Assembly (NCBI GenBank): GCA_041661605.1
Contig: JBAZUE010000001.1
Coordinates: 66,786-128,483, forward strand
From: Candidatus Omnitrophota bacterium
GTDB taxonomy: Bacteria > Omnitrophota > Gorgyraeia > Gygaellales > Profunditerraquicolaceae
Length of the DNA: 61,698 nt
Direction: 5' to 3'
Both the position numbers and the translations under genes were made by a program. Positions 1,480 to 17,831 of the stretch are shown here, in pieces; position 1 is the first letter of the stretch, and every line of letters starts with the position of its first letter. The notes beneath the pieces were generated by a model that had not been told where the DNA came from, ran no database searches, and worked only from the letters and a program-made list of their open reading frames with translations.

Positions 1480-3204
1480 TTGAGAGTGAAAAAAATATTT
1501 TTAATTTGCGTGCTATTTCTTTCTTTTTACGCTTACGCTGCCGCGCAAGCCCAGCAGGCAGCCTTAGTCGCATCCCCGGTTATTGCTGCTGAGCCGCCTG
1601 ATGAGCCGCCTGCGGAAGGAAACAACGCAGCTGTCCAGTCCCAGGGGAATGTTACCCTGGATTTTAAAGAGGCGGATATCGCCAATGTGCTTAAGATTAT
1701 CTCCTATAAGTCGGGGGTCAATATAGTTACCACGCCTGATGTTTCCGGCAATGTTTCAGTCCGGCTAAGCGATGTACCCTGGGAGATTGCCCTGGATGTT
1801 ATTTTAAAGACTTATGGTTTCGGGTATCAGAAGCAGGGAAATGTTATTTTGGTTACCAGGATTGAAAATGTGGCTAAGATTGCCGCTGATGAGCCGTTGC
1901 GGACGGATATCATTACTTTAAAGTTCTTGGATGCCCAGGATGCCCAGAAGATTATTATCCCGCTGCTTTCTCCGCGCGGGAAAATTTCCGTTCTTTACAG
2001 CCGCGGCCAGAAAGGCTGGCAGTTTGGGACTTTTAAGATTGGAAGGGAGTCGGCTGCTGCCAATGCTGCTGCCTTAAAAGACGGGATGGGCTCGACTAAG
2101 CCGGAAACAGTTTCTTATGAGAAGAATGATAAAGGCGAAACCGTAATGAAGAAGGCGGATTTTGACTCGTCGATAAAATCAAAAATGCTGGTAATTACCG
2201 ATACGGCCAGTTCCCTGGATTCAATTCGTAATATTATTTTACCTAAGATTGATATTAAGCCCAAACAGGTTTTAATCGAGACAAGGATTATTGAGGTCAG
2301 CCGGGATAAGCTCAGGGATATCGGCCTGGATTGGGGCTTGGGATCCAAAGACGCGGCAACAACTAATGCCATAACAACGCAGGGGACAAAAACTGCCATC
2401 GGGGGACATTCGGGAACCATTGCCACTTCCAGTAATCCGTTAGTGCCGTCTTTATTTGACCCGGCAACTTCGACAATTTTAGGATACCAGCCTTATAACG
2501 CCGGAGGCGAGTTTATATTTCAAAAGTTAACCGGCACTAAGTTTGAGGTAGTTATCCATGCGTTAGAGGATGACGCTAATACCAATACGCTCTCTGCTCC
2601 GAGTATCCTTACTCTGGATAATCAAGAGGCATCCATGCTGGTGGGTTTTCATACCCCCATACTTCAATCTACGGTTACTGCCGGGGATAACAGCGGCCTT
2701 GGGTCAACTATCACCCAGACATTAGATTATTATCAGGAGATAGGTATCCGTTTAAATGTCGTCCCTCAGGTAAGTGAAGAGGGATATATTAATATGATTA
2801 TTCATCCCAGCGTTACATCTTCCAGCTCCAATGTTACGGCTACTTCTACCGCCAGCGGCGAGACCACTGAAACAGAATATCCTATTATTGATGTGCGCGA
2901 AGCACAGACCCAGGTCCTGCTTAAAGACCAGGAGACTATTGTGATCGGGGGCCTGCTTAAAGATGTTAAGTCCAAAGAGTTTATAGGCATACCTTTTTTA
3001 AAAGATCTTCCTTGGATAGGAAAGATGTTTGGCCGTGAAACAACAAGCACACAGAAGATTGATCTCTTAATTTTTATAAAAGCCAAGATAATCAAGGAAA
3101 GCGAATATACTCCTGAAGAGCTGGCCAAATTAGAGGCCAGGCTGGAACGCAGCCCCGTGGTTGTTAAGGCAAAATTATCGGACAGGAAAAAAGATAAAAA
3201 ATAA
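1480..3204 (+). CDS. Secretin (PilQ/GspD family)
   Basis: Signal peptide, N0 domain VTLDFKEADIANVL, PKQVLIETRIIEV, APSILTLDNQEA and GIPFLKDLPWIGKMFG secretin motifs. Confidence 0.95.
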   Translation: MRVKKIFLICVLFLSFYAYAAAQAQQAALVASPVIAAEPPDEPPAEGNNAAVQSQGNVTLDFKEADIANVLKIISYKSGVNIVTTPDVSGNVSVRLSDVPWEIALDVILKTYGFGYQKQGNVILVTRIENVAKIAADEPLRTDIITLKFLDAQDAQKIIIPLLSPRGKISVLYSRGQKGWQFGTFKIGRESAAANAAALKDGMGSTKPETVSYEKNDKGETVMKKADFDSSIKSKMLVITDTASSLDSIRNIILPKIDIKPKQVLIETRIIEVSRDKLRDIGLDWGLGSKDAATTNAITTQGTKTAIGGHSGTIATSSNPLVPSLFDPATSTILGYQPYNAGGEFIFQKLTGTKFEVVIHALEDDANTNTLSAPSILTLDNQEASMLVGFHTPILQSTVTAGDNSGLGSTITQTLDYYQEIGIRLNVVPQVSEEGYINMIIHPSVTSSSSNVTATSTASGETTETEYPIIDVREAQTQVLLKDQETIVIGGLLKDVKSKEFIGIPFLKDLPWIGKMFGRETTSTQKIDLLIFIKAKIIKESEYTPEELAKLEARLERSPVVVKAKLSDRKKDKK

Positions 3205-3241
3205 CAGGGACGTTTCTTGAGCCAATCGGAGAACTGTCCCC
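3204..3241 (+). repeat. GGGAC hairpin repeat, solo copy (family 2)
   Basis: acagggacgtttcttgagccaatcggagaactgtcccc is the exact reverse complement of 16899-16936 (38/38) and folds as an imperfect hairpin. Confidence 0.85.
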
Positions 3242-12811: not shown

Positions 12812-13974
12812 TGGATATAAGCAAACAAATAGAGATAATTAAAAGGGGCGCTGCGGAGATAATCTCTGAAGATGAGCTGCGCAAGAAGCTTGAGCAGAGC
12901 ATTAAAGCCGGGCGCCCCTTAAAAATCAAGGCTGGTTTTGACCCCACTGCCCCTGACCTGCATTTGGGCCACACAGTCTTATTGAGAAAACTGCGCCAGT
13001 TTCAGGATCTCGGCCATGAGGTTTATTTCTTAATCGGCGATTTTACCGGTCAAATTGGCGATCCGAGCGGCAGGTCAGAGACCCGCAAGCAGCTTTCAAA
13101 AGCAGAGGTTGCCAAGAATGCAGAGACCTATAAAAAGCAGGTAGCCAAGATTCTTGATACCTCAAAATTAAAGATAGTTTTTAACAGTAAATGGTTTGAA
13201 AAAATGTCAGTTGTAGAGTTGCTGCGTCTTACGACCCATTTATCAGTTTCTCAAATGCTTGCCCGTGATGATTTTAAAAAAAGATACACTGGAGGAGAGA
13301 ATATCTCAATTTTAGAGTTTATGTATCCTCTCATGCAGGGTTATGATTCAGTAGTTCTTGAGGCTGATGTTGAGCTGGGAGGGACTGATCAGATATTCAA
13401 TCTGTTAGTTGGCCGGGAATTCCAGAAAGATTTTAATCAGGCGCAGCAGGTGGTGTTGACCATGCCGTTATTAGAAGGCACTGATGGCGTACAGAAGATG
13501 AGCAAGTCTTATGGCAACTATATCGGTATAAATGAGCCGGCAAAAGATATGTTCGGTAAGATTATGTCGATTTCCGACGAGTTGATGCTTAAATATTATG
13601 AATTGCTCACTGATGAAGATTTAGGCTCCGTTAGGAACATGCACCCTAAGCAGGCAAAGGTAAACCTGGCCAAGATTATTATTACCCAATACCATTCGGC
13701 TCAAGCCGCGGAAAAAGAGGCAGAAGAGTTCAGCCGTGTTTTTTCCCAGAAAGAGATTCCTCAGGATATGCCGGTTTTTAAAACTGACGGGAAAAAGACC
13801 ATTCTGGCTATCCTTATTGAAAGCAGGTTGGCTGCCAGCGGCAATGAAGTCCGCAGGCTGATCAAACAGGGGGCAGTCAGTTTTAATAATATAAAAGTTG
13901 AAAAGGATGATTTTATCCCGAGTGAACCAGGCATCCTCAAGGCCGGTTCCCGCCGATTCCTTAAAGTCTTGTAG
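12811..13974 (+). CDS. tyrS: Tyrosine--tRNA ligase
   Basis: [26 protein letters not shown] and KMSKS motifs, C-terminal S4-like domain. The TAG stop lies in repeat R3. Confidence 0.97.
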
Positions 13975-14021
13975 ACAGTCTACGTAACCCCATATTCCAC
14001 AATCACATCTGTAAGAAATAT
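13971..14021 (+). repeat. 51-bp bipartite repeat R3
   Basis: gtagacagtctacgtaac-N17-catctgtaagaaatat. Confidence 0.85.
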
Positions 14022-14094: not shown

Positions 14095-14778
14095 ATGCCA
14101 TCATATGCACGCAAGCATCAATTGCAACAGTCCTTAGTATATCATGCATTTAGTAGAAGCAGCGGGCGCAAGGTGATTTTTCAAGAAGTAAAGGATTTTG
14201 ATCGTTTTAAATCATTGCTTTACGATTACGGCAATAGGTTTAATTCAAAGATATATCATTGGGCTATTATGCCGAATCATTACCATTTAGTGGTTGAATT
14301 CGAATGCCCTGAACTAATTTCGAAATTTATGGCAGGGTTACATCGGGCGTATAGCCATTATTACCATAAACAATATAACACGGTTGGTTTCTTATGGCAG
14401 GGTAGATTTAAATTACAGCCGATACAGAAAGATTTGTATCTGAAGAATTGCGGCAGGTATGTGGAGAGGAACCCGGTGCGTGCCGGGATAGTCAGGCAGC
14501 CCTGGGAATATGAGTATAGCAGTGCGCGATTTTATTGTTTAGGCCGCGAGGACGGGATAACGCAAGTGAGTCCTGATTATGAAGATTTTGGAAAAGAGAT
14601 TGTTTGCAGGCAAGCTGCTTATAAAAACTTTTTGAGTATTTTTGATAATAAAGAAGAGAATTATTTTGCGAATATAGAGATTCCGCGCGGCGACCGGGAC
14701 TTTCTTCGGAGGCTGGTAAAGAGCGGCGCGCATTATTTACCTAGAAGGCGGGGCAGGAAAGCCGCATTTGTTTCATAA
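14095..14778 (+). CDS. REP-associated tyrosine transposase (RAYT, Y1_Tnp HUH family)
   Basis: YHAFSRS...IF, MPNHYH (HUH motif), LWQGRF, and RYVERNPVRAG with the catalytic Tyr. Confidence 0.9.
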   Translation: MPSYARKHQLQQSLVYHAFSRSSGRKVIFQEVKDFDRFKSLLYDYGNRFNSKIYHWAIMPNHYHLVVEFECPELISKFMAGLHRAYSHYYHKQYNTVGFLWQGRFKLQPIQKDLYLKNCGRYVERNPVRAGIVRQPWEYEYSSARFYCLGREDGITQVSPDYEDFGKEIVCRQAAYKNFLSIFDNKEENYFANIEIPRGDRDFLRRLVKSGAHYLPRRRGRKAAFVS

Positions 14779-14814
14779 AGGTATATCTTTGATGGAATTA
14801 CGTACACTGTCTAC
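14764..14814 (-). repeat. 51-bp bipartite repeat R4
   Basis: gcatttgtttcataaa-N17-attacgtacactgtctac. Contains the RAYT TAA stop codon. Confidence 0.8.
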
Positions 14815-15132: not shown

Positions 15133-15995
15133 AAGGGATTATTCTCGCAGGTGGAAAGGCCACGCGGCTTTATCCTATAACTAAAGGCGTCTGCAAACAG
15201 CTCTTGCCGATTTATGACAAGCCGATGGTTTATTATCCTTTGTCAGTTTTGATGCTTGCCGGAATAAAAGATATCCTGGTGATTTCAACTCCCAAAGATA
15301 CCCCGAGGTTCAAAGATCTGCTTGGCGACGGGGCCGGCTTAGGGATCAAACTTGATTACGCCACCCAAGCCGAACCAAAAGGAATTGCCCAAAGCTTTAT
15401 CATCGCCGAGGAGTTTATCGGCAAAGACAGCGTCTGCCTTATCTTAGGCGATAATATTTTCTACGGTTATAATTTAAGTGAGCTCCTGAAGAAGTCAGCC
15501 AGGATTAAAAACGGCGCGGTAATCTTCGGTTATTATGTTAAGGACCCCCAGCGTTATGGCGTGCTTGAGTTTGACAAAAAATGCAAGGTGGCCTCAATTG
15601 AAGAGAAACCTAAAAAACCCAAGTCTAACTGGGTAGCCGCGGGTTTATACTTTTATGATAATAAAGTAGTCAAAATCGCCAAAAATATCAAACCGTCGGG
15701 AAGGGGAGAGCTTGAGATTACCTCGGTAAATAATGAATACATTAAAAGAGGCAAGCTCAAGGCGGAATTCCTCAGCCGGGGCCATGCCTGGCTTGATACC
15801 GGTACTTATGAATCGTTGATTGATGCTTCTATTTTCATCAAAACAATAGAAGACAGGCAGGGGCTAAAGATCGGCTGCATTGAAGAGGTGGCGTATCGTA
15901 TGGGCTATATTGATAAAACACAACTGTTAAAGCTTGCCAGCCAGACACCGACCAGCTATGGGGAATACTTAAAGGATTTGCTTAAGAATGAATAA
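15129..15995 (+). CDS. rfbA: Glucose-1-phosphate thymidylyltransferase
   Basis: [32 protein letters not shown] and WLDTGT motifs. Confidence 0.96.
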
Positions 15996-16809
15996 GAACA
16001 TTTTGATTTTAGGAAAAGGCTTTATCGGCCAGAGGTTGCAAAAAGAGTTTGATTGCGCGATTGACGGCTCAATGATAAATTGCTTTAGCGACGCTGAGGA
16101 ACTGATCAAGAAATACGCCCCTAAAACAATCATTAATTGTATCGGCATTACCGGCAGGCATAACGTGGATGATTGCGAGTTGGAAAAGGACGCAACTTTG
16201 CTGGCAAATAGTTTTGTCCCGGTAATTTTGGCTGAAGCCTGCCTGCGCGGTAAGATCAAGCTTATACATATAAGCAGCGGGTGTATTTTTAATTACGATT
16301 ATAAGAAAAGCAATCCGATAAAAGAAAACAGCCGGGATTATTTTTTTAAGTTATTTTACAGCCGCAGCAAAATTTACGCCGAAACAGCTCTTGAGGCGCT
16401 TAGCCGGGATTACAATATACTTATTGTCAGGATTCGCATACCCTTACTTAATGCCAAACATCCTAAAAATGTGTTAGATAAGCTTATAAAATACAAGAAG
16501 GTAATTGATATCGCCAATTCCGTAACTTATATTCCTGATTTTCTCCGCGCAATCAAGCATTTGATAAAGATTGACGGCCGGGGGGTGTATAATGTGGTAA
16601 ATAAGGGTGGCCTGTGCTATCCTGAACTTATGAAGGTTTACCAAAAATACGTTCCGGATTTTAAATTCAAGGTGATTCCTCTAAAGAACTTAGGCCTGGT
16701 CAGGACTAACCTGATTTTATCTACAAGCAAGCTTGAAAAATCCGGTTTTAAGGTTAGAAGCATTAATTCAGTCTTAGAAGAATGCGTAAAAGAATACCTA
16801 AAATCTTAG
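15988..16809 (+). CDS. NDP-4-keto-6-deoxyglucose 3,5-epimerase/4-reductase-like (RmlD/NRS-ER type extended SDR)
   Basis: [30 protein letters not shown] and YSRSK (YxxxK) motifs. Confidence 0.7.
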
Positions 16810-17831
16810 TTACCGGCGGGGCCGGGTTCATCGGCAGCGCCTTCGTAAGATTGCTTATGAGGGACGTTTCTGAGCCCAAAGCAAGAACTGTCCCCTATGG
16901 GGACAGTTCTCCGATTGGCTCAAGAAACGTCCCTGTGGTTGTTGATAAGCTTACCTATGCCGGTGACCTGAAGCGGCTTGATGAGGTAGAAGGCAAGTTT
17001 AAATTTTATAAAATCGATATCTGTAATAAAAATAGGATAGGAGATATTTTTGCCAAAGAGAAACCGGATACCGTAGTCCATTTTGCCGCCGAAAGCCATG
17101 TTGACCGCAGTATCAATGACGCCACGCCGTTTGTTGAAACAAACATCAAGGGAACGCAGGTACTTCTTGACGCCAGCCGTGAATATAATATAAAGAAATT
17201 CATTTTTATCTCAACCGACGAGGTTTATGGGGAGATTGCCAACGGTAAGTTCAACGAAGATTCTCCGATTAAACCTAACAGCCCTTATGCGGCATCCAAG
17301 GCAGCAGCAGACCTCCTGGTGCAGGCCTATATCAGGACAAATAAATTCCCCGCGATAATTATCCGGCCGTCAAATAATTACGGGCCGTGGCAATATCCGG
17401 AGAAACTTATCCCGCTTGCCATATTGAGAATATTGGGAGAGGGAAAGGTCCCGGTTTATGGTAAAGGTTTAAATGTGCGTGAATGGTTGTATGTTGACGA
17501 TTGCGTGCGGGCTATTATGATGATTATGCACAAGGGAAAGATTGGCCAGATTTATAATTTGGGCAGCTCGTGCGAAAGCAGGAATATCGATACAGTAAAA
17601 TTATTGCTCAAAACTCTTGGAGCCGGACAGGACAGATTTGAGTTTGTCAAGGACCGCCTGGGCCACGATATAAGATACAGCCTCAATTCCAGAAAAGTTA
17701 CCAGGGAACTTGGCTGGAAACCGGGCATTAAGCTGTCACAGGGACTTAAACTCACGGTTGACTGGTCGCTTAAGCATCAAGCCTGGCTTAAGAGTAAATT
17801 AGCGGATATTAATAAGTTGTATAAGAAATAA
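16782..17831 (+). CDS. rfbB: dTDP-glucose 4,6-dehydratase with a 25-aa palindrome-encoded insertion
   Basis: GGAGFIGS, DKLTYAG, HFAAESHVDRSI, STDEVYG, YAASKA and NNYGPWQYPEKLIP motifs. Confidence 0.93.
   Translation: MRKRIPKILVTGGAGFIGSAFVRLLMRDVSEPKARTVPYGDSSPIGSRNVPVVVDKLTYAGDLKRLDEVEGKFKFYKIDICNKNRIGDIFAKEKPDTVVHFAAESHVDRSINDATPFVETNIKGTQVLLDASREYNIKKFIFISTDEVYGEIANGKFNEDSPIKPNSPYAASKAAADLLVQAYIRTNKFPAIIIRPSNNYGPWQYPEKLIPLAILRILGEGKVPVYGKGLNVREWLYVDDCVRAIMMIMHKGKIGQIYNLGSSCESRNIDTVKLLLKTLGAGQDRFEFVKDRLGHDIRYSLNSRKVTRELGWKPGIKLSQGLKLTVDWSLKHQAWLKSKLADINKLYKK
16860..16934. repeat. 75-bp palindromic doublet of the GGGAC hairpin (family 2), in frame inside rfbB
   Basis: Two 36-bp arms (16860-95 and 16899-934) inverted around tat. 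The right arm is the reverse complement of 3206-3241. Confidence 0.85.

Follow-up and report, generated by a model that had tools for sequence, protein, structure and literature searches.

The stretch of DNA analysed here (61,698 nucleotides; the window) is part of contig C1 of GenBank assembly GCA_041661605.1, from a Candidatus Omnitrophota bacterium. The assembly is 1.27 Mb in 8 contigs and is 85% complete. The window contains rfbA, an rfbD-like gene and rfbB, in that order, the last encoding a dTDP-glucose 4,6-dehydratase. Within the coding sequence of rfbB there is a 75 bp palindromic element, which starts 51 nt past the stop codon of the rfbD-like gene and has the features of a doublet of repetitive extragenic palindromic (REP) sequences (Table 1). 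The order of rfbD and rfbB and their overlap are also found in metagenomic loci. The relatives referred to below are metagenome-assembled genomes labelled Candidatus Omnitrophota.

A palindromic element read in frame in rfbB

The element consists of two 36 nt arms that flank the trinucleotide TAT, AGGGACGTTTCTGAGCCCAAAGCAAGAACTGTCCCC-TAT-GGGGACAGTTCTCCGATTGGCTCAAGAAACGTCCCT. An earlier note on this DNA had described such a palindrome in frame in rfbB, and the sequence and its translation agree. Complementarity between the arms is perfect in the outer and inner 12 nt, and the middle 12 nt differ at 8 positions (8/36 per arm). Folding energies are well outside those of shuffled sequences, both as RNA (-52.1 kcal/mol, against -23.8 +/- 3.1 for the shuffles; z = -9.0) and as DNA (-30.5 kcal/mol; z = -9.7). 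A search of the known RNA families with the element found nothing, the lone match (mir-1890, E = 0.46) being noise. Stop codons are present in 3 of the 6 frames of the element. The frame used by rfbB is free of them and encodes RDVSEPKARTVPYGDSSPIGSRNVP, between FVRLLM and VVVDKLTYAG of open reading frame (ORF) 16782-17831; ARTVPYGDSSPIGSR is an example of a peptide that the rfbB insert would yield.

The right arm has an identical copy elsewhere in the window. Positions 3204-3241 are the reverse complement of 16899-16936 at 38 of 38 nucleotides, the match that had been reported for this arm. No accepted start-to-stop ORF runs through the unit at 3206..3241, the sole open frame there being a 155-codon stop-to-stop frame on the minus strand. 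The window has 6 occurrences of GGGACNNTTCT, where 0.21 would be expected by chance.

Table 1. Position of the element, its host gene and related features in the window (REPIN, REP doublet forming hairpins; BIME, bacterial interspersed mosaic element; RAYT, REP-associated tyrosine transposase).
Feature	Position	Strand	Remarks
rfbD-like gene, upstream	15988..16809	+	overlaps rfbB start by 28 nt
rfbB/rmlB, dTDP-glucose 4,6-dehydratase, 349 aa	16782..17831	+	TIGR01181, 403.7 bits (cut-off 365.1)
REP doublet (REPIN/BIME-like), 75 bp	16860..16934	+	in frame, rfbB codons 27-51; B/A tail-to-tail
Left arm, B-type unit, loop GAGCCCAAAGCA	16860..16895	+	encodes RDVSEPKARTVP; among closest relatives, this genome only
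TAT spacer between arms, 3 nt	16896..16898	+	Tyr codon
Right arm, A-type unit, loop TGAGCCAATCGG (minus strand)	16899..16934	-	encodes GDSSPIGSRNVP; orthologous to single unit in G058, G019 and P0005
Intergenic A-type unit identical to right arm	3206..3241	+	38/38 counting two flanking bases
GTAGAC-N-GTCTAC repeats, inverted	13971-13983, 14802-14814		flank 227-aa RAYT-like Y1 transposase, ORF 14095-14778

The host enzyme

The RmlB sequences of the PDB align with this RfbB end to end (E = 1e-86), with a 17-residue gap opposite the insert. In an alignment of 41 sequences, the GxxGxxG motif, D55, S144/T145/D146/E147 and Y169/K173 are in invariant or near-invariant columns, and the catalytic motifs downstream of the insert are thus intact, as had been proposed. 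The ratio of nonsynonymous to synonymous divergence (dN/dS) of rfbB is 0.08-0.11 in comparison with five orthologs. The next-best match to RfbB in the genome is only about 35% identical, so the gene at 16782-17831 is the only rfbB present. Given its family score, fold match, intact motifs and dN/dS, rfbB is functional by every available sequence criterion.

The earlier note held that the insert adds 25 residues at a place where RfbB normally has a short loop. The place was correctly identified: orthologs in genomes without the repeat family have a loop of six residues between helix alphaA and strand beta2 (K-x-G-x-x-P; KNGISP and similar), and none of the inserted sequence, so that the claim of an insertion stands. 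The length needs amending. Twenty-five residues are indeed encoded, but they replace the six-residue loop, and the net gain over orthologs without the insert is 19. An AlphaFold2 model built with 41 orthologs has a predicted TM-score (pTM) of 0.86 and matches RmlB crystal structures in Foldseek with TM 0.82-0.94. Residues 30-47, between the helix at 16-30 and the strand at 52-54, have a predicted local distance difference test (pLDDT) score below 50. The insert is therefore modelled as a disordered stretch on an intact RmlB fold.

The repeat family

The unit of the family is a 36 nt imperfect hairpin (A-GGGACGTTTCT, a loop of 12 nt, AGAAsTGTCCC-C) that occurs with two types of loop, A (CCAATCGG) and B (CyAAAGsr). 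Loops of the B type recur in genomes G019, G046, G047, G051 and G057. In a position table of 40 units, the A that precedes GGGAC is invariant and the 5' flank is AAAKYA-like. The hexamer AAAGCA precedes many of the dispersed units and is a possible preferred site of insertion. No direct repeat of the kind that marks miniature inverted-repeat transposable elements (a target-site duplication) is visible on either side of the units inspected. The stem, read on the GGGACG-first strand, has a fixed G-T pair and a T-G or T-C position; this strand consequently has a better fold than its complement, which is what would be expected if the element acts while single-stranded.

A total of about 12 units and one half unit were identified in this genome, all on C1, including three inverted doublets of 75-76 bp (C1:83645, 287762 and 898463). 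Only the rfbB pair is inside a confirmed gene, and none of the other units is crossed by an accepted start-to-stop ORF. The genome scan proposed earlier thus yielded a dispersed family with one copy, that in rfbB, read as protein. The distribution in G019 is similar, with about 20 unit loci at gene boundaries and an internal copy only in rfbB. The strict pattern is present in 8 of the 48 genomes of the genus, although one of these has a single AT-rich match that looks like a chance occurrence. Six sister genomes have 3-27 strict matches each and 40 other genomes of the genus have none; the reversed pattern, used as a control, has 0 matches in every genome. The signs of mobility are indirect, being the identical pair of copies (38/38) and differences in presence and absence between close relatives.

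Doublets have a consistent form. Across the clade, at least 14 of 16 are heterodimers in which an A and a B unit stand tail to tail, separated by a few bases. The architecture of the rfbB element matches the B/A doublets found elsewhere in this and the sister genomes; it is a canonical doublet, and its left arm is therefore not a right arm that has decayed. In the family's other doublets, the distance by which paired units are offset varies by 2-3 nt. The multiple-of-three length in rfbB is therefore the effect of survival there rather than a property of the element.

In two cases outside rfbB, units touch a reading frame in a relative. A DUF192 protein of G046 (L118, on contig G046:C76, 1249-1620, minus strand) ends in ...GTFLNPIGEVSPP, its C-terminal residues being supplied by a unit, and in G019 (L126, on G019:C3, at about 1036-1069) a methyltransferase-like ORF runs through a unit (GDTSPIGSRNVP) and on for 46 further codons. 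A CRISPR-like repeat was considered for the family, the unit being 36 nt long and containing 'GAAAC', and was rejected: arrays are absent, each copy standing alone or with an inverted partner a few bases away.

A transposase gene flanked by the repeat

In G046 and G019, a gene for a 160-aa Y1/HUH protein is bracketed on both sides by inverted units, each a half-B plus an A. The same arrangement is found in G011 and G015, whose RAYT orthologs are 78-81% identical; over all four genomes the orthologs are 78-100% identical. An HUH motif (HHIH or NHVH) and YVE(L/F)NP are readable in the sequences. Judged by sequence, such a unit-flanked RAYT gene is a REPtron, the arrangement that defines REP/RAYT systems. 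The earlier note had proposed a second, independent family of mobile repeats that creates protein sequence. With a RAYT flanked by inverted units in four genomes of the genus, the family is instead of the ordinary REP/REPIN type.

A related layout is present on the contig of the window. At C1:287739-287836 a half B unit ending in AAAGC is followed by an A unit, TAT and an inverted A unit, much as at the ends of the REPtrons of G046, G019 and G011, with no gene between. The genes that flank this site differ from those at the G046 and G019 REPtrons. It resembles REPtron ends and may be a REPtron that has lost its gene.

History of the rfbB insert

A maximum-likelihood tree was constructed from 77 rfbB orthologs with the loop removed. 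This rfbB groups with that of G058 (100/100) and then with that of G019 (99/89), and all three carry the A unit with identical boundaries. Their sister clade (100/95) has the plain loop KNGISP. Compared with the closest relatives, the B unit and TAT (39 nt) are present only in this genome. The palindrome did not, then, arrive as a single 75 bp element as the earlier note supposed, since its right arm is common to the closest relatives and its left arm is confined to this genome.

The A unit differs from that of G058 at 2 of 36 positions, against a synonymous divergence of 29% (binomial P = 6e-4), and from that of G019 at 4 of 36, against 54% (binomial P < 6e-7). It has diverged less than the synonymous sites, which indicates that the repeat has been held near its consensus, either because the hairpin is constrained or because it has been copied from other units. 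The rfbB of G046 (L105/L052, about 1574-1672) has 99 consecutive N at the very place expected for the insert. A masked run of 33 codons is present in G009 (L005), in the gene downstream of rfbB.

It is probable that the 75 bp palindrome is a REP doublet of a small REP family that is specific to one Omnitrophota genus, is most likely mobilised by a RAYT and is tolerated within rfbB. By analogy with the REP/RAYT systems of E. coli and Pseudomonas, the 160-aa RAYT would most likely make and move the copies on single-stranded DNA. One A unit would have entered the codons of the alphaA-beta2 surface loop in the ancestor that this genome shares with G058 and G019, and would have survived because it is a multiple of three in length, is free of stops in the frame used and lies in a tolerant loop. 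The B unit and TAT were probably added beside it later in this lineage, completing the palindrome. Most likely the insert is translated, on the structural model, as a disordered excursion of 25 residues; it most likely has no catalytic role, and the enzyme would stay functional.

Several observations weigh against this explanation. The 160-aa protein has its best NCBIfam match to REP_Tyr_transpos (NF047646), and the scores of 68.6 and 74.3 bits are below the cut-off of 80. No ortholog of the cognate RAYT was found by tblastn in this 85%-complete assembly, nor has the assembly a copy of the DUF192 gene that adjoins the RAYT gene in G046 and G019. The GT[AG]G foot of classical REP sequences is missing, there being no GTAG or GTGG in 40 units with their flanks. 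Finally the metagenomic protein P0002, which is in the same rfbB clade (100/98), has a different 75 bp doublet (B/B', of the sister family GGGACGGTTCT) at the same codons. An A unit in the common ancestor with B added in this lineage is the most parsimonious order of events, but because of the P0002 doublet it is not secure.

A loop occupied by many repeats

The single insertion in rfbB is one of many at this site. In a census of 81 distinct Omnitrophota RfbB orthologs, the alphaA-beta2 loop has its basal length in 36 and at least 4 extra residues, up to 43, in 42. The extra DNA of these loops folds at -9 to -73 kcal/mol, compared with 0 to -11 for basal loops, and GGGAC or GTCCC is present in 23 of the loops. 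At least three other unrelated-looking hairpin families are found there, with peptides such as GDCRRGGLNLPYGS, SVIARRxAPKQS and LLRPAKAGLAMTKQ. Another 15 genomes of the genus, but not this one, have a short GGGGACWGTCCCC family. Of insertions of at least 4 residues, 20 segments are at this loop as against 2 at residue 43, with a few at the C-terminus. Independent assemblies have, in several cases, a single unit or a 75 bp doublet of a sister family at exactly these codons, and the doublet of P0004 is present on 21 contigs (JGI, ENA, Logan).

The sister REPIN family, of 75 bp (AGGGACGGTTCT...AGAACCGTCCCT), was seen at rfbB codons 27-51 in the metagenome contigs L149, L150, L152 and L153. At least six metagenomic lineages of RfbB have it there, and a single sample (JGI 3300013138) is the source of two. 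The second and rarer insertion site, near residue 43 between RLEEV and KGKFKFY, is occupied in L018/L053, L019, L040 and L041. Hairpins of the GGGACWGTCCC type are found there, encoding peptides such as GLSPKGTVP and RGLSLKGAVP.

The neighbouring genes are not affected in this way. There is no internal insertion in rfbD in 68 loci, or in 39 loci in the gene downstream of rfbB, which encodes a short-chain dehydrogenase/reductase (SDR). A bias of the repeats to land just past an upstream stop codon was considered and rejected on these grounds: the SDR gene, which begins 13 nt past the rfbB stop and has an equivalent loop, is uninterrupted, so a simple bias of this kind does not explain the site. 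It is the site that is unusual here, one RfbB loop being occupied repeatedly by different repeat families across the phylum. Either repeated targeted insertion or in-place replacement, or the spread of alleles by recombination, could be the cause.

For the first of these, a tentative suggestion is that the loop acts as a landing pad for REP sequences, at which, after a first hairpin has arrived, REP-specific processes swap, double or replace it from the resident REP or REPIN family, each time at the same codon boundaries. This could occur through RAYT action at an existing REP or by conversion from other copies. If so, the loop would be a natural and repeatedly used site of cassette exchange, and the specificity of REPIN integration could be read directly from comparative data.

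It is also possible, if somewhat doubtful, that the shared site goes back to one or a few old insertions, with the insert-bearing rfbB alleles spreading by homologous recombination among Omnitrophota populations that co-occur and the arms then being overwritten by the resident REP family. The GGGACG-type singles and doublets have identical boundaries and replace the same 18 nt, and a CTT codon precedes the insert in all of the insert-bearing alleles read. The genes of P0007 and L032 are 90-99% identical and differ by the presence of a 75 bp doublet, with four substitutions within the 9 nt immediately before the insert (TTG TTG GTT in L032, CTT CTT ATT in P0007), which hints at a short conversion tract. 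However, the windows of P0007 beside the insert match L032 at 99% rather than a donor, so any such tract must be very short. The unrelated hairpin families in other lineages have slightly different boundaries, and several independent insertions are therefore needed in any case.

A role of the hairpin itself in the rfb operon, at the RNA or DNA level, with the peptide as a by-product, is unlikely. It could, for example, be a 3' stabiliser of the rfbA-rfbD message that ends 51 nt upstream, a translation brake on rfbB or a protein-binding site. The great stability of the hairpin (-52 kcal/mol), the evolution of the A unit far more slowly than the synonymous sites of rfbB, the hairpin-forming inserts in 42 of the 81 orthologs and the lack of internal insertions in the neighbouring rfbD and SDR genes, in 68 and 39 loci, would all suit such a function. 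Against this, the plain six-residue loop suffices in 36 of the 81, including the sister clade, and the same units are at ordinary gene-end positions elsewhere. The inserts are from several unrelated families and add anything from 4 to 43 residues, which fits tolerance better than a single conserved function.

An assembly artefact that created the whole doublet, or its left arm alone, is very improbable, as is inactivation of rfbB by the insertion: assemblers can be misled by palindromes and the B arm is seen in this assembly only, but that arm is a distinct B-type unit in the tail-to-tail B/A arrangement usual at other loci and in other genomes, the reading frame is kept, related 75 bp doublets have been assembled independently at the same codons many times (that of P0004 on 21 contigs), and dN/dS, the intact catalytic motifs and the lack of another rfbB in the genome speak against inactivation.

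Relation to known repeats

The family shares much with the REP, REPIN and BIME sequences of E. coli and Pseudomonas and their RAYT (TnpA-REP) enzymes (PMC3116915, PMC6006769). In both there is a short imperfect palindrome in tens of copies, mostly extragenic; there are inverted doublets with a short spacer and two alternating types of unit, like the Y and Z REPs of BIMEs; and a single-copy Y1/HUH transposase gene lies between inverted units. The Omnitrophota family differs in having no GT[AG]G foot, a conserved loop of 12 nt and only 3-27 copies, in that the RAYT is missing from this assembly, and in that one copy is inside a coding sequence.

REP sequences within genes have been described. 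In-frame GTAG and CGTC REPs, as singles and dimers, were catalogued in several phyla by Di Nocera, De Gregorio and Rocco (2013, PMC3733652), being most numerous in Opitutus terrae and Rickettsia conorii. Their dimers encode 20-30 residues, and some species have no REP-modified coding sequence other than the affected ORF. Like the rfbB element, these are singles and dimers in frame in known enzymes, and the rfbB doublet therefore belongs to a known phenomenon, differing in the phylum and the sequence of the repeat. The independence that the earlier note claimed for the family is further undercut, since the Rickettsia palindromic elements (RPE) that it took as a precedent are themselves placed among the CGTC-tagged REPs in that catalogue.

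The likeness to the Rickettsia elements is one of behaviour. They too are palindromic repeats tolerated in frame in the surface parts of housekeeping proteins and translated as an extra peptide, and the comparison drawn earlier holds to the extent that a dispersed palindromic family here has one copy read as protein. Of about 12 units here, a single one is intragenic, and the sequences are unrelated. RPE-4 and RPE-6 are treated as CGTC REPs, with a stem of 8-9 bp, a loop of 4-5 nt and a CCA tail (PMC3733652). The Omnitrophota unit has CGTC inside an 11 bp stem, a 12 nt loop and a C[T/A] tail, which is not the geometry of a CGTC REP. Furthermore, according to that paper, the CGTC repeats are without a dedicated flanked transposase, whereas the Omnitrophota family has one.

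REPs have also been found inside tnpA-REP genes of RAYT subclass 2.4 (Quentin et al. 2018, PMC6006769). These are in the reading frame without disrupting it, and in the 'long' ones the stem has a base of three G-C pairs, as here; the subclass has an HUH motif of the NH[IFV]H type with WQ, which is again a likeness. The host in the present case is a sugar dehydratase and not a transposase.

As a single case the rfbB doublet is ordinary, adding an Omnitrophota example to the published REPs that are tolerated inside genes. What it adds is persistence, with an in-frame REP copy retained across species-level divergence (dS of about 1) in an enzyme under strong constraint, and a series of intermediate stages, from plain loop to single unit to doublet, that is kept among close relatives. 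With an identifiable REPtron and no GTAG foot, the family extends the variety of hairpins apparently served by RAYT-like enzymes. The repeated use of the loop raises the question of whether REPs home to existing REPs or to particular sequences, or whether alleles are spread by recombination. In the available part of the 2013 catalogue, REP-decorated genes are given species by species, with no single site hit by different families across a phylum, and the only epimerase/dehydratase entry in the supplement is hit at residues 155-161 and not at the alphaA-beta2 loop (PMC3733652). A literature search of limited scope found nothing relevant on Omnitrophota and palindromic elements, and no description of one codon position used by several families or of a series of plain loop, single unit and doublet.

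Other transposase genes and repeats in this genome

This genome has two RAYT-like genes, encoding proteins of 227 and 245 aa, which are of another class. The first, ORF 14095-14778, was considered as the cognate enzyme of the family and rejected, as it is flanked by a different repeat (Table 1). In addition, many genomes of the genus have its orthologs (at least 72% identical) next to the rfb operon, and the GGGACGTTTCT family is absent from most of these genomes. The second gene (C1:44594-45331; L002 1435-2172), for the protein of 245 aa, is 53% identical to the first and has no obvious flanking palindromes.

Contigs C4-C8 of the assembly have a G+C content of 64-69%, compared with 42% for C1-C3, and are probably contamination of the bin. 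Further copies of the GTAGAC-N-GTCTAC repeat that flanks ORF 14095-14778 are present at about 8918, 19242 and 21067.

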